DNA of 64,000 bases, taken from positions 1-64,000 of IMG/VR virus record IMGVR_UViG_3300031576_000016, one strand, 5' to 3'. Both the position numbers and the translations under genes were made by a program. This document shows positions 2,400 through 26,709 of the stretch, in pieces. Every line of letters begins with the position of its first letter. The first letter of the stretch is position 1. A model generated the notes under the pieces. That model saw only the letters and a program-made list of their open reading frames with translations, did no database searches and was not told where the DNA came from. The DNA is from a virus.

Positions 2400-2755
2400 G
2401 GTTCGTTATCCTCGTAGTCAGGGTTCTCAGCATAGAAGTCTTGCCAGGCTTCTTTGCTCATGTCCACAGGGTTGTTGGGGTCTGTGTCATCGACCTGGTC
2501 CACCGGCCTTCGCGTGCGTTCTTCGTCATAGGCCCGGCGGTCTTCGTCATCGTGGTCAATGTCCCCTTCCGGGAGAAAGTCCAGGTCTTCCATCTCTTCA
2601 AGTTCGCTCGCATCAATTTCGATGCGTGGCTCATGATTACGTGGTCGAGTGGCCCATAGGACGAGTACCCGCACAACTTCTTCGGGTCCTTCCTCAAGCC
2701 ACTCATTCACCTTCCGCTCGAAGTAGGCTTGCGCCTGCTCTTCCGTCATTGGCAT
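2396..2755 (-). CDS. Highly acidic hypothetical protein
   Basis: About one third Asp/Glu; GAGG RBS. Confidence 0.75.
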   Translation of the reverse strand: MPMTEEQAQAYFERKVNEWLEEGPEEVVRVLVLWATRPRNHEPRIEIDASELEEMEDLDFLPEGDIDHDDEDRRAYDEERTRRPVDQVDDTDPNNPVDMSKEAWQDFYAENPDYEDNEP

Positions 2756-2757
2756 GG

Positions 2758-3027
2758 CTACCTCATTTTCATTGGGGTGTTTTTGGGGTACGAGAAGCCC
2801 ATTGCTTTTCGCACATTGATGACCATGCGAGTAGCCCGGTTCGCACTGGCCGCGTGGCCTTGGTCGCCACAGCCGGTGTTGTAGCGATGGGACAGGTAGC
2901 CATAGAGCATTGTGGCACGTTGAATCAACGCGGCAAGCTCCTGTTCCATCTCCTGCTTACCTTGCTGTTGTTCCAACAGCTTCGGCCAATCGACAAATGG
3001 CTGTTCGAGAAGTTCTTGCGTGGTCAC
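2758..3027 (-). CDS. Hypothetical protein
   Basis: GTGA overlap; tiles the operon. Confidence 0.7.
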   Translation of the reverse strand: MTTQELLEQPFVDWPKLLEQQQGKQEMEQELAALIQRATMLYGYLSHRYNTGCGDQGHAASANRATRMVINVRKAMGFSYPKNTPMKMR

Positions 3028-3218
3028 GGTCGCCTTCCTTTCACTTCGGCCATGCCGACCTTGTTGCCGTTGGCATCGTGCAGTGACACATTGGTGCCAT
3101 TTGACAATTCAGCACAGCTTTCAAGTTCAAAGGCCAGTTCACGGAGGATGCGGGCCGCTTCGCTTCCCGCATCCTCAAAGGCCGCATTGTCCATGTTGAT
3201 TGTGATGACCAGTTTCAT
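3024..3218 (-). CDS. Small conserved-looking phage protein
   Basis: MDNAAFED...ARILR...DANGNKVG pattern; ATGA overlap at 3215-3218. Confidence 0.75.
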   Translation of the reverse strand: MKLVITINMDNAAFEDAGSEAARILRELAFELESCAELSNGTNVSLHDANGNKVGMAEVKGRRP

Positions 3219-3727
3219 CGCACATTCTCCGTGAGTTTGCGAACCACTTCCACGCACGCCAGAGCGTGCTTGAGGGTGACACCACCGGGCAAGTAGACTA
3301 GGGGCACATCATGCAGGCTTTCTTCAAGGCCGGCGAGAGCCTCCTTGGTGTTGGCCAAGATGTCTGCGGCCTTGTCGAAATTGCCCTTCATCATCTCGTC
3401 AGCCGCCTTCATGCCGCACAGCACGCCGCCTGCCAGCGCCAGTTGCTTCATGATATAGCCATTGCCTTCGATGAACACCTTGATGTGCTCGCTGGGCTCG
3501 GGGAGTTCCACTGTGAAGAGCACGCGGCGTTTGTCGCCATCTTTCTTCTTGCGGTCGGCCGAGTTGAGCCCATCGCCCATCACTTCGGCCTTGACGGTCA
3601 TGCCGCTCTCACCGCCCTCATGGGCGGTGTTGAGCCAGGCCCATACCTTGTTCGAGCTACGTCGCCCACCAAGGGAGACTTCGCGGTTGTCATTGCCCGC
3701 CTTGATGAATGCGTTCACACGTCCCAT
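3215..3727 (-). CDS. Hypothetical protein
   Basis: AAGGAG RBS before MGRVNAF. Confidence 0.75.
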   Translation of the reverse strand: MGRVNAFIKAGNDNREVSLGGRRSSNKVWAWLNTAHEGGESGMTVKAEVMGDGLNSADRKKKDGDKRRVLFTVELPEPSEHIKVFIEGNGYIMKQLALAGGVLCGMKAADEMMKGNFDKAADILANTKEALAGLEESLHDVPLVYLPGGVTLKHALACVEVVRKLTENVR

Positions 3728-3728
3728 G

Positions 3729-4736
3729 CTATTCTCCTTCGTAGTCAGCACTCACTTGCACATTGCCGATGATGACATTGTGCTCCACGTACTTGATTGG
3801 CTCACGCCAGTTGCACACTTTCGGGATGATGGCCTTATTGATGTATCCCTTGGCTCGCCAGGTCGGGATGTGCGTCTTGCAGAAACAGGTGGGTAACGTC
3901 CTGTAGTAGACGTAGTTGCTGGCCAGTTCAGCAGGAATGCCAGGCACAGGCAAGGCGAACGAGAGACACACGAATCCCTTATCCCATTCAGGTTTCGTGC
4001 CCACCATGTTGAGCTTACGCCTGGTCATGGCACAGGCCAGGTAGATGGCCAGGCGATGTTGTCGCATGTCGTCGTTGTCATCGTGCAGCCGTTTGTAGGC
4101 GGCGTAGTGGTGGTTGCGTTGCTCCCACTCGATGATGCCTTTCCAGCCCTCATCGAGCAGGCGCTGGTATGTGGGCATGGTTGCGGCCCTGGCGACATTC
4201 AGAAAGCTGACGGGGTCGCTTTCACGCAGGTAATCATGAATCATGGCCGCGTACTTCCATGCCGCATCATTGAACAGGCCGGCCTTTTCCATCTGCGATT
4301 CACGCAGCAGCGTCACGCCAAATTCGCTGCACAGTTGCTGGAGGCTGTTGCAGTAGAGAGCGGTACTCTCTTGGATGTTGGCCTGGTCCGCGAACAGACA
4401 CAAGCCTGACGTGTCTTCTGCTCGCACCACCAGTTCGCATCCCGGCTTGTAGCAGGCGGCAACCCGGTCTTGAAGATGACGCAGTTGTCTGATGGTGAAC
4501 AATTCGGCAACATCAATCGGTTCGCCGAACTTGGCCTTGGTGGACCAGAAGGGCACCAGGATTGGGATGGGGCGATTGTCCTTGACGTAGCTGGAGATGA
4601 TTTCTCCAACGCGGTCGTCAGGAGCAGAGCCAAGGCGAATGCTGCGTGTCGCATACACAGCCTCGATGGGGCATTGCGCTGCCATCGGTGGCTCACGCAT
4701 TGCCTGTTGAAGAAACTCCACGACTTTCGTTTCCAT
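3729..4736 (-). CDS. Isonitrile (isocyanide) synthase-like protein, PvcA/Dit1/IsnA family
   Basis: YVxxxxPIxILVPFxxxK...DxAExxxxxxLxxLxxxVxxxYxPGxxxxxxxED and C-terminal PxW follow the motif order of the family. Confidence 0.55.
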   Translation of the reverse strand: METKVVEFLQQAMREPPMAAQCPIEAVYATRSIRLGSAPDDRVGEIISSYVKDNRPIPILVPFWSTKAKFGEPIDVAELFTIRQLRHLQDRVAACYKPGCELVVRAEDTSGLCLFADQANIQESTALYCNSLQQLCSEFGVTLLRESQMEKAGLFNDAAWKYAAMIHDYLRESDPVSFLNVARAATMPTYQRLLDEGWKGIIEWEQRNHHYAAYKRLHDDNDDMRQHRLAIYLACAMTRRKLNMVGTKPEWDKGFVCLSFALPVPGIPAELASNYVYYRTLPTCFCKTHIPTWRAKGYINKAIIPKVCNWREPIKYVEHNVIIGNVQVSADYEGE

Positions 4737-4932
4737 AGTCGGTTCCCTTGCGTTGTTCGGCAGCTTGACTGGCGATTTTGAAGGCGAGTGCGGCTGCCTG
4801 TTTCGCACTCTCTTCTGCTGCATCCGGGTCATCGGTCAACCCACTGTCGGCGTCGTTGTTGTAGTTGCTATTGGCGTAGTGGAGAAAATCAACTACCTTG
4901 TCAACTTCCTCCGGTGTCAGGTCGAGTATCAC
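4693..4932 (-). CDS. Hypothetical protein
   Basis: Tiles the operon; AAGGA RBS. Confidence 0.6.
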   Translation of the reverse strand: MILDLTPEEVDKVVDFLHYANSNYNNDADSGLTDDPDAAEESAKQAAALAFKIASQAAEQRKGTDYGNESRGVSSTGNA

Positions 4933-5110
4933 GCTTTTGTTCCTTTTCCTTCATGACCATATTGATGAAAAAGAGCTTGTCCTGTTCGGCCTTGCTGGAG
5001 GCTCCACGCTCATTGCCACGCTCGATGATGCGTTCCATCTTGATGCCAAGGTTGGCAAGCTCGTCATATGACATCAAGCGGAATTTGTCGATGAGTGGGT
5101 TATTCCACAT
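4901..5110 (-). CDS. Hypothetical protein
   Basis: Tiles the operon. Confidence 0.6.
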   Translation of the reverse strand: MWNNPLIDKFRLMSYDELANLGIKMERIIERGNERGASSKAEQDKLFFINMVMKEKEQKRDTRPDTGGS

Positions 5111-5510
5111 CTTTCGAGTCCTCAATGGTGAGCATCGTCATGTCATCGAGCCGGCCGTATGCGGCGAAGTAGATGCAGTCTTCGCAGATGACATATTCCT
5201 GAATCCGCTTCTCTTTACGATTGTATCCCGTTGCGTCCTCGCGGCTACCACCCAGGGGACGCCGACAGCAATCACACGCTCGCCAGGAGAAGAACGGCTC
5301 GCCGATAAGCGGCTCGCCGAAGGCGGGGCACTCAGCGTTGGCACAAGTCGGGTAATCGCCATCGCGATTGAGTTCGGTGCGACATCGCTCGCAGGTCACA
5401 CGCCCACCGGACAGATTCTCGATTTCCTCTTTCTCGAAGAACTCGGTGACACGTCGTCGATATTCTTCGTAGTCGGCCTTGGTTCGGACATCTTTCAGCG
5501 GAGTATCCAT
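5100..5510 (-). CDS. Cys-rich zinc-binding phage protein
   Basis: CxxC, CxxxxC, FSWxxCDCC...LGGxR and CxxC motifs. Confidence 0.7.
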   Translation of the reverse strand: MDTPLKDVRTKADYEEYRRRVTEFFEKEEIENLSGGRVTCERCRTELNRDGDYPTCANAECPAFGEPLIGEPFFSWRACDCCRRPLGGSREDATGYNRKEKRIQEYVICEDCIYFAAYGRLDDMTMLTIEDSKDVE

Positions 5511-5511
5511 G

Positions 5512-5883
5512 TCACACCTGGATGTATTCGAGCAGCCTTTTGAGTTTCGTGCGCGTGCTCAGGTCAAGGCCGCGTTTACCAAGCACATCAGCAATTTCGT
5601 AGTCGTATTGCAGGAACACAGACAGTTCTTGCGGTGGTTCAACGTCATCGGGACCGTAGCCCTGAAGACCAATGTAGTCCAGGCCGGTGTTTTCGCACAG
5701 GCAGTACACCCGGTCCCCTTCGTAGAAGAGCCAGATGGAATCGTTGCTGCCACATGGCAACACGTGACGACGTTTCTTGCCCTGGATGGTGGGCTTGATT
5801 ACCGAGGCGGGATTCTCCCGCCTCGCTGCACATTGAGAGTCAAGGCTTTCGCGGTACACTTTCGTGTCAAGTTCTCGCATCAT
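5512..5883 (-). CDS. Hypothetical protein
   Basis: ATGA overlap at 5880-5883. Confidence 0.7.
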   Translation of the reverse strand: MMRELDTKVYRESLDSQCAARRENPASVIKPTIQGKKRRHVLPCGSNDSIWLFYEGDRVYCLCENTGLDYIGLQGYGPDDVEPPQELSVFLQYDYEIADVLGKRGLDLSTRTKLKRLLEYIQV

Positions 5884-6176
5884 CGGTAGAACCTCGCATT
5901 GGGAAGCCAATAACGCACACGCTTTTTGGCATCTTCACGAGAAGCTGCCCTGACGAACACTTCGATGTCGTAACCTGGCTCGTAGGCCCAATAGATGAAG
6001 GTGACAGGGCTGTCATTCACTGGCCCACCCCAATAGGCCCCGCCCTGGTCGTAGTCACCATCCACCCAACGAAGACGAATGAGGTTGAGCTTATAGGACA
6101 TCGCTCTGTCAGCAGGCAGACGATTGGGCCTGCCCATCTGAGCGCCGTACTTGCTTGACGCATTACTCAGCAGCAT
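5880..6176 (-). CDS. Conserved-looking phage protein
   Basis: YGAxMGR...GDYDxGGAYWG motif; GGAGG RBS. Confidence 0.75.
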   Translation of the reverse strand: MLLSNASSKYGAQMGRPNRLPADRAMSYKLNLIRLRWVDGDYDQGGAYWGGPVNDSPVTFIYWAYEPGYDIEVFVRAASREDAKKRVRYWLPNARFYR

Positions 6177-6177
6177 G

Positions 6178-6891
6178 TCATCCCTCCCTTGTGCCATTGA
6201 TGGTGAAGGTGTAGTCGTTGGCCTCAGCGAAGTCGCTAATGGCCTCCTCGCTTGTTTGGTCGTCGTGCCCCTCTTCGAGGGATTTGTAGATGGCTTGGCT
6301 CAGTTGCTCACGTAGCTTCTCCACGTCAGCTTCCCAATCATTGACCAGGCCATCGAGTTTCTCGGGGCCACACCACTCGACCTTGAAGTCGCAGGTGTTG
6401 TAATGCACATACCGAGAATCGGTACGCACCACCTTACCGGACAGGTCATTGGCGTAGCGGAGCAGTTTCTTGTACTGCACTTCCCACGGCTCACCGTTTG
6501 AGCCAATCTTGCGGTGAATGTAACCGCTGAAATCTTCGCCGCCTTCGGCGTTCCAGGCGTTCTTGCGTTTGGTGCCCATGATGCTGTCAGAGGGCGTGAC
6601 CTTGTGCGTCATGAACTGTAGCAGGCGGCGACAGTCCACATAGTCACAGGTGAAGCTGGCTCCATCTCCCTGTGACCAGAAGCCCGAGAAGCTGATTTTG
6701 GCCTCATCGAAACCAATCTGCGTGAGGGCCTTACCCCACATCTCATAGATGTAGTCCCACCAATCATGGTCAGTCTGACCTTCACGCAACCACTGTTGGA
6801 CCTTTTCGATGGCCCTGGTTTGGACTTTCCCCTACTTGTGGAGTTCGAGCAACTCCTTGTAGGTGTAGACGGTCTTAGTGACTGTCTTCAT
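6178..6891 (-). pseudogene. Phage protein of the VYTxxEL...FSGFWSQGDGASF family, interrupted by an in-frame TAG at 6832-6834
   Basis: GAGGAGG RBS plus ATG at 6891; reads MKTVTKTVYTYKELLELHK*GKVQTRAIEKVQQWLREGQ..., continuous in one frame. Confidence 0.7.
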
Positions 6892-7341: not shown

Positions 7342-7961
7342 TACAGGGCACTCCTTTCAATCGTACCATCCAGCACATTGACCTTGAGGGCCTCCTTCAG
7401 TACCTCATCGCTCTCATGGTCATAGCACTGGATGTCCACGCTTTCGAGCAGGGCAATGACATCTTCCCTGCTCATTTCCTGAATCTGGAACTTGAGGTTC
7501 TCACGCTCCGTTTCTCGGTAGAGGTTGTCTGCACAATGTTCGGAGCAACATGGGTAGTCATCAGCATCCATGTCCAGTGGATGCCATTTCTCTTTGCCCA
7601 GCAAATCCCCACACTGCACACAACGGGGAAGCGTCTCATCGAACTGTTTCGCTTCAGCCAACATGCGGGCGAACACTTCCTCAGTGGCCGGCTCTTCAGA
7701 CAGGTGCAGGCCCATGCCGTGGGTGTTGCCCACAGCAATCTGAATATCATCGTTGGGAGCATCAGCCTGCCACGCTTTCGCAATGGCGATGGCCGCTTCG
7801 GTAGCAGGTGTCAGGCCCTGGTATTCCTCCATCTCGCCAGCGTAGCGTTTGCACAGGGCATCAGACCCAGAGTAGTCGATACCACCCTGGGTGATTTCGA
7901 CAATCTTCTCACCATCGGGCCAGCGGTGTTGACGGGTGACAGTGAATGTTGCTTCGCTCAT
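7341..7961 (-). CDS. Hypothetical protein with zinc finger
   Basis: CxxCG...CCSxxC; ATGA overlap. Confidence 0.75.
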   Translation of the reverse strand: MSEATFTVTRQHRWPDGEKIVEITQGGIDYSGSDALCKRYAGEMEEYQGLTPATEAAIAIAKAWQADAPNDDIQIAVGNTHGMGLHLSEEPATEEVFARMLAEAKQFDETLPRCVQCGDLLGKEKWHPLDMDADDYPCCSEHCADNLYRETERENLKFQIQEMSREDVIALLESVDIQCYDHESDEVLKEALKVNVLDGTIERSAL

Positions 7962-8839
7962 AGGGTCTCCACGGTCATGGGAATCCGTAGGTACTGTTTA
8001 CGCTCGTACTCATCAATCCTGGTGCCATCGGGCACCTTCCACGGATTGAGCATGAAGTTCGCACCAAAGGGATGGTGTTCGTTCTTTGTCCCTGACCAGT
8101 AGCTACCGATGTACCACTCGTAGGGGCTATCGGTCCAAGCGAAACAGAACTTGCTGCGCTTGTGCATTTTCTCGGGCTGTGTACCCACCAGAATGATTCT
8201 GGTATCATCATCCCGATTCGTATCCGTGTACATCGCACCTTCGTATGCGAGGTTGTCGAGCAGCACCTTGACGGGCTTGACATCTTTGACATTGGTCAAT
8301 GACTGCAACCAGGTCACCACAGCCATTGCCGATTTGGATGGGCTGCACGTTTTCGTTGGCCCAGCCGTTCGCTTCACTGCCTGGGGCGGTTGTTCCACGA
8401 CGATGTTGAAGCGGGCTGCATCGTGGATGGTTTCCACCATGCCAAATTGCCAGTGCGGTTTGTTCTTGTCTCCTGGTGTGAATACCTGGCGACCACCAGA
8501 TTCCAGCGCCTCCGATTGCCATACCGTGATGCCGCGCCCCTCAGTGAGCCAACTCAGCATCTGGTCACGTTGTTCCGCTTTCCTCACGGTCACGTTGTAG
8601 ACGGCCTCCCATCCAAGGGGCGGGTCAATCATCTCCAAGGGCACAAGGCGCTGGTCACCTTCGACGGGCTTGTCCCCATTCAGCAGTTGGAGCAGAGCAT
8701 TCGTGCCCACGATTCCTTCCACACGTAGCCATGCCCACACAGTGGCATGAGTCGTGTGCGTGATGTGGTCGGCATACACTGTCAGGTAGTTGTCAAACGT
8801 CTTGAGCTTGACGCGAGCACCAATGGGTGGAACCCACAT
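7958..8839 (-). CDS. Hypothetical protein (293 aa)
   Basis: Long ORF with AAGGA RBS. Confidence 0.8.
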   Translation of the reverse strand: MWVPPIGARVKLKTFDNYLTVYADHITHTTHATVWAWLRVEGIVGTNALLQLLNGDKPVEGDQRLVPLEMIDPPLGWEAVYNVTVRKAEQRDQMLSWLTEGRGITVWQSEALESGGRQVFTPGDKNKPHWQFGMVETIHDAARFNIVVEQPPQAVKRTAGPTKTCSPSKSAMAVVTWLQSLTNVKDVKPVKVLLDNLAYEGAMYTDTNRDDDTRIILVGTQPEKMHKRSKFCFAWTDSPYEWYIGSYWSGTKNEHHPFGANFMLNPWKVPDGTRIDEYERKQYLRIPMTVETL

Positions 8840-8845
8840 ACTGCA

Positions 8846-9292
8846 TCATCCTTTCTTTTGCGGAGCGTTACGTTTGCGACACACACGGAACTTCACGGTT
8901 GCCGATGGCAGGGAAGAGAGCAGGGTTGCACGCCATTCACAGGGCATACAGTACAGCGGGCTACGCTCGCGGGCTTCGTCGATGGCATGGTTGGCCATGC
9001 GTTCGATGTATTCGTCAAGCTGACCTGAGCGGGCCGCTTGCCTCATGTTCTCTTCGTCGAGTTCTTCCAGGTCCCCAGGTAAGGAGACCTCGTAGTAGTC
9101 ATAGACATGGGGCCTTGGCTTGATGACTCGCACGATGCGGTATTCCAGCGTGGTTCCGAAGGTAGCGAGAAACACACGATGAAACGCATTCGCGGGTGTC
9201 TCATTCCCCTGTGTCTCCACAGGGACAGCGTGCTTGGCCTGACGGTATGACCCATCAGGCATCTTTGTCTCGTACCGGATTTTCGCTTTCAT
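8846..9292 (-). CDS. Hypothetical protein
   Basis: Start re-set to MKAKIRY behind a GGGAG RBS. Confidence 0.7.
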   Translation of the reverse strand: MKAKIRYETKMPDGSYRQAKHAVPVETQGNETPANAFHRVFLATFGTTLEYRIVRVIKPRPHVYDYYEVSLPGDLEELDEENMRQAARSGQLDEYIERMANHAIDEARERSPLYCMPCEWRATLLSSLPSATVKFRVCRKRNAPQKKG

Positions 9293-9308
9293 GTCATGAT
9301 GCTCCCTT

Positions 9309-9626
9309 CTACTCTGCAATAAGGTCCAGGTACGCCTGTGCCATCTTACGAATGGCCTCCAGGTTTTCAGGAGAGCGATGCTCTTTCTTGCGTGTGACCA
9401 GACGCACCTGTGGCATCCAGTCATGTGCTTCCACCAGCACAGCGATGTGATAGGGCGTACTCAGGTCAGCAATGGCCTTGTACGCTTCGATGACAGCCCC
9501 ACTGAGATACCATTCGCCACAGTGGGGTGGGCGAAGCTCGCCAGTCCATACGGCCTTGCGGCCGGCCAGCGTGTAACCATCGCCAGGACCCTTGGCTGGG
9601 TAGAGCACGTTGCGCTGTACGCTCAT
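9309..9626 (-). CDS. Hypothetical protein
   Basis: ATGA overlap at 9623-9626. Confidence 0.7.
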   Translation of the reverse strand: MSVQRNVLYPAKGPGDGYTLAGRKAVWTGELRPPHCGEWYLSGAVIEAYKAIADLSTPYHIAVLVEAHDWMPQVRLVTRKKEHRSPENLEAIRKMAQAYLDLIAE

Positions 9627-9982
9627 CGTAGGTATTTCATCCTTTGTGCAAAGAAGCCGTGTGGGATGTCTTCCATGCACGAGCCATCGGCATCGAGTGA
9701 AATGAGCACGCCATGAATGGGTCCTGGCGCTTTGCACACACACCAGGACACGAACCGTGCTTGAATCCTTCCCTGCTTATGCAGCCACTGCGCCACGAGC
9801 AGCAGTAGCTCATCACTGGTGACCAGGTCAACGTCAGTGCCGCCCTTATGGAACGCCAGCAGGCGTTCCTCATAGCCAGGCCCACGTGCGTTGGGCACAA
9901 CGATTGAGGCGATGTGGTATTCCTCGCCAGTGAGCATGTCCGATGGGATAAGCCCACACTGACAGAAGTGAATCGTAATCAC
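9623..9982 (-). CDS. Hypothetical protein
   Basis: Tiles the operon. Confidence 0.7.
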   Translation of the reverse strand: MITIHFCQCGLIPSDMLTGEEYHIASIVVPNARGPGYEERLLAFHKGGTDVDLVTSDELLLLVAQWLHKQGRIQARFVSWCVCKAPGPIHGVLISLDADGSCMEDIPHGFFAQRMKYLR

Positions 9983-22517: not shown

Positions 22518-22738
22518 TTGTGCTGACCCGGGCCAACAACAAAGAGCTTCTCGAAAAGGTTCTCGCGTACCTCAAATCGAGGTATCCCGAAGAGAACACC
22601 CAGGACCTGAAGGTTTTGCAGGAAGGGAAGATTTGCTGGTGTCTGTTTTTCGACGGACCCAGGGAACGGCTGCTGCCCGTCATTAGTGTCGCGGCAGAGC
22701 TTGCAAAAGGAGCGATGGAATGGATAAGCGAGCCCTGA
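22514..22738 (+). CDS. Hypothetical protein
   Basis: ATGA overlap. Confidence 0.65.
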   Translation: MIVLTRANNKELLEKVLAYLKSRYPEENTQDLKVLQEGKICWCLFFDGPRERLLPVISVAAELAKGAMEWISEP

Positions 22739-23859
22739 TTTTCGGCGTCACCGGACAAGACGGGTCTTACCTCGCGGAGTTTCTCCTTTCTAAGGGATAT
22801 TCCGTATGCGGTGTGTGTCGCCGCGTGAGCGTGCCCAACACGCAGCGGATTCATCACCTTCTGAACGAGCCGAGGTTCCGGCTTGAGTTCGGGGATGTGA
22901 CGGACATGAGCAGTGTCAGCCGCATCTACAACGAGAACCTGGACGGCCACTACGACGAAGTCTACAATCTGGCCGCTCAGTCTCACGTCGGCCTCTCTTT
23001 TGACGAGCCGGCCCACACGACCCAGGTGACCTACCTCGGGTGCCTCAACATTCTGGAAACCATCCGTCAACGGCACTACAGCCGGTGGATGTCAGAGCCC
23101 TGCCCCAACACGAAGGTTCGGTTCTACCAGGCCAGCAGCAGCGAGATGTTCGGCCGGGGCCGGAGCATGGACTTCTCCAAGATGTTGACTGGCGGCAACG
23201 TGACGGAGTCTGTGATGTACCACGGCTCGCCGAATATCTGGAAGGAGCCGGACCCGAACCACAACCAGGATACCGGCTGGGTCCAGCACGAACTGACCCC
23301 CATGCTTCCCTGCTCACCCTATGCCGTCGCCAAGCTTGCGGCCCACAACCTCGTGCGCATCTACCGCGAGTCCTACGGGCTCTTTGCGTGCAGCGGCATC
23401 CTGTTCAATCACGAGTCCGAGCGACGGGGCGAGAACTTCGTCACCCGCAAAATCACCAAGTACGTGGCCAGCCTAAAGGCCGGCCACGTCAAGACCAAGC
23501 TGATGCTCGGAAACCTCACGGCCAAGCGCGATTGGGGCCATGCTGAGGACTATGTGCGCGGCATGTGGCTGATGCTCCAGCAAGACAAGGCCGATGACTA
23601 CGTGCTCGCGACTGGTGAGACGCACACAGTCGAAGACTTCCTGCGTGAAGCGTTCGCCGTCATTGGCATCGACGACCACAAGCCCTATGTGGCCCAGAGC
23701 GCGGACTACATGAGACCCAACGAAGTCCCCTTCCTGCTTGGGGATGCGACCAAGGCCAAGAACTGCCTGGGCTGGGTTCCGCAGGTGAATTTCGCGGACC
23801 TGGTCCGTCGAATGGTGTTATCTGATGTAGCTGAGACAAACAATGCCAAAGCGAGTTGA
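22720..23859 (+). CDS. gmd: GDP-mannose 4,6-dehydratase
   Basis: GVTGQDGSYL, YNLAAQSHV, YQASSSEMFG, SPYAVAK, GILFNHES, RGENFVTRKI, RDWGHA. Confidence 0.96.
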   Translation: MDKRALIFGVTGQDGSYLAEFLLSKGYSVCGVCRRVSVPNTQRIHHLLNEPRFRLEFGDVTDMSSVSRIYNENLDGHYDEVYNLAAQSHVGLSFDEPAHTTQVTYLGCLNILETIRQRHYSRWMSEPCPNTKVRFYQASSSEMFGRGRSMDFSKMLTGGNVTESVMYHGSPNIWKEPDPNHNQDTGWVQHELTPMLPCSPYAVAKLAAHNLVRIYRESYGLFACSGILFNHESERRGENFVTRKITKYVASLKAGHVKTKLMLGNLTAKRDWGHAEDYVRGMWLMLQQDKADDYVLATGETHTVEDFLREAFAVIGIDDHKPYVAQSADYMRPNEVPFLLGDATKAKNCLGWVPQVNFADLVRRMVLSDVAETNNAKAS

Positions 23860-24169: not shown

Positions 24170-24641
24170 GTACCAGTACCGCGTCCTGCGTGATACACGA
24201 GAAAAAGACGAATACGGCTGGGTCTTCCCCGCGAACGACCGGTGCCTTGGCACGGTTGAGACGACGCTTCATACCGGGGACTACACACTCGAAGGCTACG
24301 AGAAGCTGTTCATCATCGAACGCAAAGGCGGCATCGCTGAGTTCGCCAAGAACCTGGTTCAAAAGCGATTCGAGATGGAGCTTTGCCGGCTCGATGAATG
24401 GCTTCATCCATATCTTATTCTTGAGTTTGACTTAGCTCACATTGTCAACTTCCCACTAGGGTCCGGCATCCCAGAGAGTAAGCTTCGCTACCTGAAGCTC
24501 ACTCCTCAGTTCTTGATGCAACGTGTCTGCGAACTACAACTCCGTCATAAGACCAGGCTGATTTTTGCCGGCAAGTACGGCAAGCACATCGCGTCGAGCC
24601 TGTTCAAGAGAATTTGTGAAAATGTCACGCTCCCCGCATGA
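24141..24641 (+). CDS. ERCC4 (XPF/Mus81-like) domain nuclease
   Basis: DTREK...GDY...IERK signature. Confidence 0.85.
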   Translation: MPSEKSKSPKYQYRVLRDTREKDEYGWVFPANDRCLGTVETTLHTGDYTLEGYEKLFIIERKGGIAEFAKNLVQKRFEMELCRLDEWLHPYLILEFDLAHIVNFPLGSGIPESKLRYLKLTPQFLMQRVCELQLRHKTRLIFAGKYGKHIASSLFKRICENVTLPA

Positions 24642-26709
24642 ACGAGCCATCGAAATCGCCAATGAAGAGTGGTTGAACCTTGGCGACACTACCAAGCTCG
24701 AAATCGTCAACCCGTTCGCTATGCGAACCGAAGAAGACATCGAGAAGCCAATCGACCATCTGCTGGCGCTGATGCGTCGGCCAGAATACTTCGGCTTCAC
24801 GTGCAAATGGCTGTTCAACAAGACTCTCGTGCCCTATCAGGGTGCCTGGCTTTATGAGCTTTGGAACCGGCCGTTTCCAATGCTGGTTGGTAGTCGTGGA
24901 GCGGGCAAGTCTTTCATGCTCGGGCTTTACTGCGTGCTACGCGCGTTGTTCACACAGGGCACCAAAATCGTCATCGTTGGCGCAGCCTTCAGGCAAGCCA
25001 AATATGTGTTCGAGTACGCCGAGAACATATGGCACAACGCTCCGATGTTGCAAGACATCTGCGGCGACAGCCGGCGAAATGGGCCCAAGCGCGACGTAGA
25101 CCGGTGCGTCTTCCGCATTGGCGAGAGCGAAATTGTGGCGTTGCCCATTGGCGACGGCTCGAAGATTCGTGGTCAACGTGCCAGCATCATCATCTCTGAC
25201 GAATTCTCGTCGGTGCCACTGCCTATTTACGAAACTGTCATCGAGCCGTTTGCCAGCGTGTCTATGGACCCGGTGGCGAAGCTTCAAGAGGCAGCACGCA
25301 TCCGGGCCTTCAAACGAATGGGTCTATGGAGCGATGAGCAGGAAGCGGAGACGGGCATCGGGTTCTTGTCGAACCAATCCATCATCTCCGGCTCCGCATA
25401 CTATGGCTTCAACCACTTTGCGGCTTACTGGCGGCGCTGGAAGGCCATCATCGAGTCGCGCGGCGAGCCCAAGAAGCTTCAGGAGATTTTCGGCGGCGAC
25501 GTGCCGCCCAAGTTCAACTGGCGTGACTATTGCGTCATCCGGATGCCCGTCGAGTTGTTGCCCGAAGGCTTCATGGATGAGAAGAATGTCGCCAAGGCCC
25601 GGGCCACGGTCCATCTCACACAGTACCAGATGGAATATGGTGCGTGTTTCGCCAATGACAGCAACGGCTTTTTCAAGGCTTCCCTCATCCAGAGTTGCGT
25701 GGTCGGCAACCCGGTCACGCCCATCGAGCACCGCAGCTGCGGCGAAGTCTGCTTCAACGCGGTCCTGAAGGGCCTTCCCACTCGTCGATACGTCATGGGC
25801 ATTGACCCGGCGTCCGAGCACGACAACTTCTCGATTGTTGTCCTGGAGCTATGGGGGGACCACAGGCGCATTGTCTACTGCTGGACCACCACGCGCAAGC
25901 GGCACAAAGCGAAGTTGAAGAAGGGGCTGACTCAGGAGCATGACTTCTACAGCTATGCGGCCAGGAAGATTCGCGAGCTTATGTACCTCTTCCCTTGCGA
26001 GCGACTCTGTGTTGACTCTCAGGGTGGTGGTGTTTCCATCATCGAAGCTTTGCAAGACCCTAAGCGTCTCGCAGCAGGCGAGCGACCCATCTATCCAGTC
26101 ATCGACTTTGATGACCCGAAGGACACCGACGCCCTCGTGGGCGACCACATACTTGAAGTTGTCAACTTCGCGAAATCGGAATGGGTGGTGCAGGCGAACC
26201 ACGGCATGAAGAAAGACTTCGAGGACAAGGTCCTCCTCTTCCCGCAGTTCGACACTGCAGTGCTCGGCCTTGCTATCGAAGAGGACAAGGAGCGCGGCCG
26301 CGTCATTGCCGATGACGAATGGACCGAGAAGCTCTACGACACGCTCGAAGATGCCATCATGGAGATTGAAGACCTCAAGGACGAGTTGGCGACCATCGTT
26401 CACACCCAGACCGGGACGACGATGCGCGACCGCTGGGACACGCCCGAGGTCAAGCTACCTGGCGGCAAGAAGGGCCGGCTTCGCAAAGACCGTTACTCGT
26501 CGCTCCTCATGGCGAACATGGCTGCCCGCATCCTCGCGCTGACGCCCATCCAGGCCGACGTGGAGGTCTATGGCGGCTTCGCCAGGGAGATTGTGGGTCG
26601 CAGCAAGGGGCGCGCGGCGCGCGCGACCAATCATCAGAACCCATCCTGGTACACGGAGAAGGTGCAAACTGGCCGAGCATTCGGCGCGGTTGTGCAGCGT
26701 CGGCGATAA
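24622..26709 (+). CDS. terL: Terminase large subunit
   Basis: Walker A GSRGAGKS, RGQR, Walker B IIISDEF, RNase-H MGIDPA, CVDSQGGG, KDRYSS. Confidence 0.92.
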   Translation: MSRSPHERAIEIANEEWLNLGDTTKLEIVNPFAMRTEEDIEKPIDHLLALMRRPEYFGFTCKWLFNKTLVPYQGAWLYELWNRPFPMLVGSRGAGKSFMLGLYCVLRALFTQGTKIVIVGAAFRQAKYVFEYAENIWHNAPMLQDICGDSRRNGPKRDVDRCVFRIGESEIVALPIGDGSKIRGQRASIIISDEFSSVPLPIYETVIEPFASVSMDPVAKLQEAARIRAFKRMGLWSDEQEAETGIGFLSNQSIISGSAYYGFNHFAAYWRRWKAIIESRGEPKKLQEIFGGDVPPKFNWRDYCVIRMPVELLPEGFMDEKNVAKARATVHLTQYQMEYGACFANDSNGFFKASLIQSCVVGNPVTPIEHRSCGEVCFNAVLKGLPTRRYVMGIDPASEHDNFSIVVLELWGDHRRIVYCWTTTRKRHKAKLKKGLTQEHDFYSYAARKIRELMYLFPCERLCVDSQGGGVSIIEALQDPKRLAAGERPIYPVIDFDDPKDTDALVGDHILEVVNFAKSEWVVQANHGMKKDFEDKVLLFPQFDTAVLGLAIEEDKERGRVIADDEWTEKLYDTLEDAIMEIEDLKDELATIVHTQTGTTMRDRWDTPEVKLPGGKKGRLRKDRYSSLLMANMAARILALTPIQADVEVYGGFAREIVGRSKGRAARATNHQNPSWYTEKVQTGRAFGAVVQRRR

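Follow-up and report, generated by a model that had tools for sequence, protein, structure and literature searches.

Isonitriles are rare, strongly metal-binding compounds, and two biosynthetic routes to them are known (PMC12946266). Among described enzymes, those closest to the protein treated here are PvcA of P. aeruginosa (3E59) and PIsnA (9DH4, 9DHM and 9DHN), with which it shares a whole-chain fold (Z 18.5-18.9) at 13-15% identity. This protein, P0002, is encoded on the minus strand of the IMG/VR virus record IMGVR_UViG_3300031576_000016, whose positions 1 to 64,000 constitute the window, that is, the whole stretch of 64,000 nucleotides analysed. The usual genomic partner of isonitrile synthases, although not a strictly defining one, is PvcB/IsnB, an Fe(II)/2-oxoglutarate oxygenase of the TauD family. 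Yeast Dit1, a clear member of the DIT1_PvcA family (PF05141), is instead paired with the P450 Dit2. Dit1 acts in spore-wall N-formyl-tyrosine synthesis; its known product is not a free vinyl isonitrile, and it needs no TauD-type partner (PMC7345447). It thus offers a precedent for divergent outcomes on the PF05141 fold. In addition, class I aminoacyl-tRNA synthetases (aaRS; TyrRS and TrpRS) and cyclodipeptide synthases (CDPS) possess the same Rossmann-like (HUP-type) core, at Z 8.5-9.8 to P0002.

The viral protein differs from each of these systems. In common with PvcA and PIsnA it has P62 and K67, D75-x-A-E78, Y96-x-P-G99, Y128, R239, W251 and P292-W293, whereas the loop of canonical K49 is deleted, the CSDG, NGIHRFLFED, RLSIHP and W-H motifs are replaced, and an extra N-terminal R-x-G-x-x-P motif is found throughout its family. 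Unlike IsnA-type enzymes, the family is borne by phages and, in five records, occurs without the PvcB/IsnB oxygenase. In contrast to Dit1, P0002 is neither a clear PF05141 member nor paired with a P450, and in contrast to aaRS it has no HIGH motif, no KMSKS motif and no anticodon-binding domain. The initial annotation of the window had recognized a PvcA/Dit1/IsnA-like gene from the order of its motifs, all of which are present as stated (P56-I-P-I-L-V-P62-F63..K67, D75-V-A-E78...Y96-K-P-G99, E107-D108 and P291-T-W293); the ‘ED’ among them, however, is specific to the phage family and not shared with the known enzymes.

A distant homologue with the PvcA fold

Judged from sequence profiles and a predicted structure, P0002 is, as first proposed, a true, distant homologue of PvcA/IsnA, with the PvcA fold over its whole chain. 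The Pfam profile DIT1_PvcA matches it with 24.2-24.4 bits (E 2.4e-5) over profile positions 2-167 of 273, a score slightly short of the Pfam gathering cut-off of 26.4 bits. Only two of 12 close relatives match DIT1_PvcA at E<0.01, and the NCBIfam equivalog for L-tyrosine isonitrile synthase (NF045653) gives P0002 15.9 bits (E 0.0046) against a cut-off of 600 bits. When a profile of 12 family sequences was compared with the sequences of the PDB, PIsnA (9DHM, E 2.9e-4) and PvcA (3E59, E 3.3e-3) were the only meaningful matches. Moreover, hhalign comparison of a 149-sequence family alignment with 41 canonical synthases yielded probabilities of 96.8% in local mode (E 3e-10, 123 columns) and 97.9% in global mode, and in the reverse direction the hidden Markov model (HMM) of the phage family gives canonical enzymes 27-50 bits.

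The structural evidence points the same way. An AlphaFold2 model of P0002 (predicted local distance difference test, pLDDT, 89.5; predicted template-modelling score, pTM, 0.88) has PvcA and PIsnA as its top Foldseek matches (E 3.5e-10 to 6e-9), which is the fold match that the initial annotation had proposed to look for. In VIA-align, residues 22-334 of the model superimpose on residues 12-318 of PvcA chain 3E59_B (Z 18.9, 262 residues, root-mean-square deviation 3.4), and PIsnA 9DHM and 9DH4 each reach Z 18.5. The clusters nearest to P0002 in the ESM Atlas are all annotated as PF05141. No PvcA-like viral structure was found in BFVD, where only giant-virus aaRS appeared. The two halves of the protein contribute differently: the N-terminal half can be aligned with canonical synthases in sequence, and the C-terminal half, which matches PvcA by structure only, holds the family-specific invariants G197-W198-x-G200, Y214, Y232, R239, F260, Y278-R279-T280, H289, W293-R294 and G297.

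The second-best fold in the VIA-align comparison is the Rossmann core of TyrRS, TrpRS and CDPS, and it brings up a tRNA-dependent enzyme, either CDPS-like or a degenerate tyrosyl-tRNA synthetase, that would act on aminoacyl-tRNA or on tRNA-like RNAs. We regard this as very improbable. These second-tier matches reach Z 9.8 or less, about half of the PvcA score, neither HIGH nor KMSKS occurs in the P0002 sequence, and the family is mildly acidic, with a median isoelectric point (pI) of 6.3, which argues against a nucleic-acid binder.

A sister family carried by phages

P0002 is one of a large set of related proteins. An exhaustive profile search retrieved 691 cluster representatives (50% identity) at E<=1e-3, of which 399 were found at E<=1e-30, so that the family numbers at least 691 clusters; nearly all members are 350-380 amino acids (aa) long, typically about 360. 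P0002 matches the family profile with 420 bits (E 6e-121) over positions 12-361. None of the 11 relatives found in a word-based search carries a Pfam annotation. The family goes unnamed in Pfam, in PHROGs, in NCBIfam and in PADLOC, searches of PHROGs and PADLOC gave no match, and the literature searched contains no paper on it or on any connection of phages with this kind of enzyme. Fused longer forms of 710-2025 aa were looked for and none was found, which is weak evidence. Two fusions were observed on the canonical side, both in Bacteroidota: a PF05141 gene in which a TetR_N DNA-binding domain is joined to a full isonitrile synthase (locus L017), and a DIT1_PvcA-GNAT fusion (locus L018).

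When 50 phage-type and 30 canonical sequences were placed in one maximum-likelihood tree, the two groups split with 100% support in the Shimodaira-Hasegawa-like approximate likelihood-ratio test (SH-aLRT), and the branch between them amounts to about 5 substitutions per site. P0002 groups with two relatives, P0003 and P0004 (SH-aLRT 95), nested inside the phage family, and its tip branch is long (1.21 against a median of 0.66 in the same tree). On these sequence comparisons, P0002 belongs to a separate, phage-borne sister family and is not a canonical member.

Conservation was tabulated over 149 family sequences with a mean identity of 30%. Five columns are invariant (R34, K67, D75, Y128 and W293) and about 25 more are at least 90% conserved, among them G36, P39, G64, A77, E78, G99, R105, E107, D108, E146, G197, W198 and G200, as well as Y214, Y232, R239, F260, Y278, R279, T280, H289, R294 and G297. 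P0002 keeps all five invariants and 22 of these 23 near-invariants. The exception, G64W, is unique among the 149 sequences: residue 64, in the loop before K67, is Trp in P0002, Gly in 144 of 149 relatives and Phe in canonical enzymes. P0002 further deviates at E42R, R44G, Y210H and Y218H, in columns that are 81-88% conserved.

Residues kept and replaced in the cleft

The canonical set was built from a single seed, the PF05141 gene of a Bacteroidota genome (264 bits), and has 24 invariant columns, which were mapped to the phage family through the hhalign profile alignment; its C-terminal, global part is of low confidence (Table 1). About 9 of the 24 survive in the phage family and about 15 are changed or deleted, so that the loss of active-site residues, which the initial annotation had said would tell against it, has occurred in part. 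K67, D75, E78, G99 and Y128, which align to the canonical N-terminal motifs P-A-F-P-A-K (K43), P-D-x-x-E (D56 and E59) and Y-x-P-G (G80) and to canonical Y106, are 98-100% conserved in the phage family. Further along, the Trp of the canonical T-P-W-H is kept as W293 (100%), together with the Pro before it, and both canonical invariant histidines, H227 and H252, are replaced. The pair E107-D108 directly follows strand 2, at the position of the canonical C-S-D-G, and does not align with E177-D178 of the canonical FLF-E177-D178.

Table 1. Canonical invariant positions and their counterparts in the phage family
Canonical	Phage family	Remark
P38	P62	Kept
K43	K67	Kept
D56	D75	Kept
E59	E78	Kept
G80	G99	Kept
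Y106	Y128	Kept
R206	R239-240	Kept; low-confidence part
W210	W251 (71%)	Kept; low-confidence part
P250-W251	P292-W293	Kept; low-confidence part
K49		Lost in 5-residue deletion
C-S-D-G-x-V-F-x-D (C86, S87, D88, G89, D94), after strand 2	R105-x-E107-D108-x-S-G..L-F	
R140 and K235		Changed or deleted
NGIHRFLFED (G170, R173, F174, E177, D178)	G197-W198-x-G200 ... EQR..Y214 instead	No counterpart; low-confidence alignment
RLSIHP (R223, S225, H227)	LSF; R223 -> Q/x, H227 -> x	Low-confidence alignment
W247, T249, H252	H289, P, R294	Low-confidence alignment

At some positions P0002 looks more canonical than its family. It has S110 and D117 at canonical S87 and D94, which are found family-wide in only 51% and 40%, and it keeps canonical S225 as S259, as does 34% of the family. 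Against the canonical profile it scores 27.4 bits and ranks 7 of 149 (family median 17.3), with an aromatic residue at the canonical F40 position. This high rank likely reflects convergence or noise and not ancestry, because P0002 is nested deep in the phage family. The 2008 structure paper on PvcA reportedly identified six conserved motifs that surround a putative active-site cavity; as a lead, we take two of these to be retained in the phage family, two half-retained and two replaced, by our own count.

According to the secondary structure of the model, the residues conserved in the phage family lie mostly in or just after its five parallel strands: K67 four residues after strand 1, R105, E107 and D108 at the end of strand 2, E146 and S147 after strand 3, F260 after strand 4, and Y278, R279 and T280 at the end of strand 5, with H289..W293-R294 before the C-terminal sheet. 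Rossmann-type folds bind their ligands in such places. Because the conserved residues cluster at these sites, the ancestral cleft appears to be under selection but differently lined. Speculatively, H289 and the new acidic cluster E107/D108/E146 might form a binding site for a metal or a protonated amine.

A probable related chemistry without a partner enzyme

On balance, we infer that P0002 is a stand-alone enzyme which works in the ancestral cleft on small molecules supplied by the host, through an amine/keto-sugar-phosphate chemistry related but not identical to that of the known synthases; we hold this account to be probable by a modest measure. The protein would be expressed, probably early, from a leftward block of small genes. 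It keeps the Rossmann-like PvcA fold, whose substrate cleft lies along the C-terminal edge of the parallel sheet. A shared core made up of the Lys after strand 1, D-x-A-E, Y-x-P-G, Tyr128, Arg239, Trp251 and Trp293 is also maintained, the rest of the signature having been swapped for other residues that are just as conserved: R34, R105, E107, D108, E146, G197-W198, Y214, Y232, Y278-R279-T280, H289 and R294. Acting alone on substrates from the host cell, the enzyme would, like its relatives, accept a primary amine, a sugar phosphate or both, the amine probably being an alpha-amino acid. A C-N condensation related to theirs would follow, with an outcome other than the isonitrile that canonical enzymes form from L-Tyr or L-Trp.

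The partner searches bear directly on this account. The initial annotation had noted no PvcB-like oxygenase adjacent to the gene, and the observation extends to the whole of this record and of four other carrier phages: in none of the five was a TauD-type oxygenase (PF02668, the PvcB/IsnB partner) found, the E. coli control being positive, and a CDO-type cupin (CDO_I) was likewise absent from the same records in a search whose positive control worked.

Alternatively, P0002 could be a genuine isonitrile synthase, by which ribulose-5-phosphate and the alpha-amine of an amino acid from the host would be condensed to a free alpha-isocyano acid. Hydration of this acid may follow and give an N-formyl amino acid, a step proposed for yeast Dit1, and the product would serve the phage as a small molecule that binds metals or is reactive. 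PvcA and PIsnA are the only structural relatives well above background, and over the full length; K67, D75, E78, G99 and Y128 of the N-terminal half correspond to canonical invariants; and H289, four residues before the invariant Trp, possibly compensates for the canonical His that stands after the Trp. The seventh rank of P0002 against the canonical profile, with its aromatic residue at the F40 position, also fits, and just two routes to isonitriles are known, of which that of IsnA is one (PMC12946266). Nevertheless, we consider this identity possible but unlikely. About 15 of the 24 invariants are lost, including K49, S87-D88-G89, R140, R173, E177/D178, R223, H227 and H252; the scores lie under the Pfam cut-off and far below the NCBIfam equivalog cut-off; no downstream tailoring enzyme of the TauD or CDO type was found in any of the five phage records; and the canonical-like residues of P0002, given its position deep in the phage family, are not ancestral. 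The isonitrile synthase function as such, which the initial annotation had assigned, is thus not borne out, in view of the lost canonical invariants, the failed Pfam and NCBIfam cut-offs and the separate phage-borne family. The role that it proposed, inhibition of host metalloenzymes or of defence, is speculative.

Several points weigh against a related but non-identical chemistry. The mapping of the C-terminal residues rests on a low-confidence global profile alignment, and some of the ‘lost’ residues may have moved and not vanished, in which case the same chemistry could survive; canonical W247..W251-H252, for instance, corresponds to phage H289..W293-R294. In addition, the canonical ‘invariant’ list may be too strict, because Actinomycetota-like sequences abound in the canonical set, which goes back to a single seed. 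Finally, P0002 itself could be a weakened member of its family, because it combines the unique G64W with a long tip branch.

Phages that carry the gene

The initial annotation had placed the gene in a phage, and this is supported, the window having a large terminase gene; P0002 sits in a leftward block of small genes. The record, a virus contig from IMG/VR, is 93.6 kb long with an estimated completeness of 61%. Its DNA is contained in full in one cave-metagenome sequencing run, probably its source, and no RNA run was listed among those that contain it; the identical protein also occurs on a 194-kb contig. IMG/VR contains 11 family loci, on contigs of up to 186 kb, and JGI and ENA metagenomes supplied 60 further loci. 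All family members with readable context lie on phage contigs. A pattern scan of one genome per species across 185,579 prokaryote species gave a single match, on a 10-kb contig of a Bacteroidota metagenome-assembled genome (MAG) where portal and large terminase genes adjoin the family member (locus L013); this contig is thus either a prophage or DNA of a phage that was binned with the MAG. Neither a tblastn search of 50,697 GenBank phages nor a megablast search with 12 kb gave a match.

The gene appears to travel alone. When five carrier records (31-57% GC, two of them complete) were compared in full, the PvcA-like gene was the sole open reading frame (ORF) family common to this phage and the other four, and across 73 loci of 47 lineages (60% identity) no neighbour family was present in more than 3 lineages. 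The GC content of the family loci ranges from 24% to 67%. Recognizable neighbours across the loci encode DNA ligase, Pol A, helicase, exonuclease, QueC and a Ro60/TROVE-like protein; such replication and nucleic-acid genes fit early or middle expression and point to no pathway.

A stand-alone gene that moves horizontally among unrelated phages shows a pattern typical of phage counter-defence genes. Together with the loss of many canonical invariants, this would suit a non-catalytic binder, or ‘sponge’, in which the old substrate cleft sequesters a host metabolite or signalling molecule during infection. We think this improbable, since charged and aromatic residues that are invariant in this family, acidic pairs and a His among them, stand densely at the strand ends and look catalytic, and since no PADLOC or PHROG link was found. 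Known phage sponges are also much smaller than about 360 aa. An enzyme in the ancestral cleft, as set out above, is preferred.

Individual carriers show features of their own (Table 2). Four related phages (L002-L005; 107-186 kb, about 37% GC) encode, directly after the homologue, a TROVE/Ro60-like plus vWA protein of 600 aa, which corresponds to DUF2828/DUF7788 and phrog_850 (‘RNA-binding protein’); a DUF7873 protein comes next, and a DUF7873 gene also follows the homologue in locus L077. In L008, and in this lineage only, QueC (7-cyano-7-deazaguanine synthase) lies two genes downstream, after an exonuclease, which suggests that this phage has deazaguanine DNA modification. In L006/L007, of which L006 lies on record G003 with 57% GC, a 641-aa antisense ORF spans the whole homologue and is most likely a shadow frame.

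The gene and its surroundings in the window

The PvcA-like gene is intact and has a good predicted ribosome-binding site (Table 2). The ATG at 4736 is the likely true start, because of the spacing of the Shine-Dalgarno-like AAGGGA, because relatives in the family alignment all begin at or near it, and because the public gene call is the identical 335-aa protein. The start at ATG 4832, which would give 367 aa, was rejected: the 32 extra residues are basic, of low complexity and absent from all relatives.

Immediately downstream, a 170-aa ORF with its own GAAGGAG is predicted to be translationally coupled to the PvcA-like gene. It has no match in Pfam, PHROGs, NCBIfam or PADLOC, and the neighbour comparison found no homologue of it beside other PvcA-like family members. 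Because a 79-aa ORF overlaps its start, the PvcA-like gene is probably read within a longer leftward transcript, and this overlap and the one-base gap to the 170-aa ORF together place it inside a leftward multi-gene unit. The surrounding leftward block consists of small genes, mostly without a known family. A promoter and terminator scan of 2500-6500 found nothing above the shuffled background. Elsewhere in the window, a nucleotide-sugar epimerase-like gene and a single ORF of 6,291 aa were observed.

Table 2. Coordinates of the features in the window and at the other loci mentioned in the text
Locus	Feature	Position	Strand	Remark
Window	CDS (coding sequence) of PvcA/IsnA-fold protein P0002, 335 aa	3729-4736	minus	Stop codon TAG at 3731-3729
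Window	Longest open frame, 367 aa	3729-4832	minus	ATG at 4736 internal to it
Window	Shine-Dalgarno-like AAGGGA	4749-4744	minus	7 nt upstream of ATG 4736; read from sequence
Window	N-terminal half, residues 40-158	4263-4619	minus	Sequence-alignable to canonical synthases; strand 1, K67 loop, D75-x-A-E78, Y96-x-P-G99, Y128
Window	C-terminal half, residues 159-335	3732-4262	minus	PvcA match by structure only; low-confidence global profile alignment
Window	Residue 64 (Trp)	4545-4547		
Window	GAAGGAG	3740-3734		Within last codons of PvcA-like gene, ahead of 170-aa ORF
Window	Downstream ORF, 170 aa	3215-3727	minus	ATG at 3727; one base between PvcA-like stop and this start
Window	Small upstream ORF, 79 aa, putative	4693-4932	minus	ORF list; GTG start, other frame; overlaps first 44 nt of PvcA-like gene
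Window	Small ORF, 74 aa, putative	4901-5125	minus	With 79-aa ORF, fills gap up to Cys-rich gene
Window	Cys-rich gene, 136 aa, phrog_3034	5100-5510		Upstream of the two small ORFs
Window	Nucleotide-sugar epimerase-like gene	22720-23859	plus	phrog_540 (E 2e-67); just upstream of terminase
Window	Large terminase gene	24565-26709		
Window	Single ORF, 6,291 aa	39911-58786	plus	
L002-L005	Homologue, then TROVE/Ro60-like plus vWA protein	7378-9974	plus	
L006/L007	Antisense ORF, 641 aa	5107-7032	minus	
L008	QueC	8241-8888	plus	
L013	Family member with portal and large terminase	2530-5619	minus	Bacteroidota MAG
L017	TetR_N-isonitrile synthase fusion	622-2307	plus	Bacteroidota
L018	DIT1_PvcA-GNAT fusion	772-2331	minus	Bacteroidota

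Implications

What is new here comprises the neighbour analysis of 73 loci, the whole-record comparison, the partner searches, the tree and the residue map with its unique G64W. Since the gene moves alone between unrelated phages, its product must act on something that most bacteria contain. A tentative and rather doubtful extension is that phages of many lineages (GC 24% to 67%) carry a self-sufficient early enzyme by which an amine common in hosts, such as that of an amino acid, a polyamine or a nucleotide, is converted to an isonitrile or to some other reactive C1-nitrogen group. If true, the virus would make its own warhead or ligand, poisonous to metallo-enzymes or defence proteins of the host, or would mark a phage molecule in this way. 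As a single-gene target the enzyme is tractable, and it would yield either a virus-made isonitrile or a new reaction on an old scaffold; the latter case would also reveal the canonical residues that isonitrile formation can do without. If the extension above holds, viruses would for the first time have an isonitrile-type chemistry assigned to them, and the phage family would represent a third branch of IsnA-fold catalysis.

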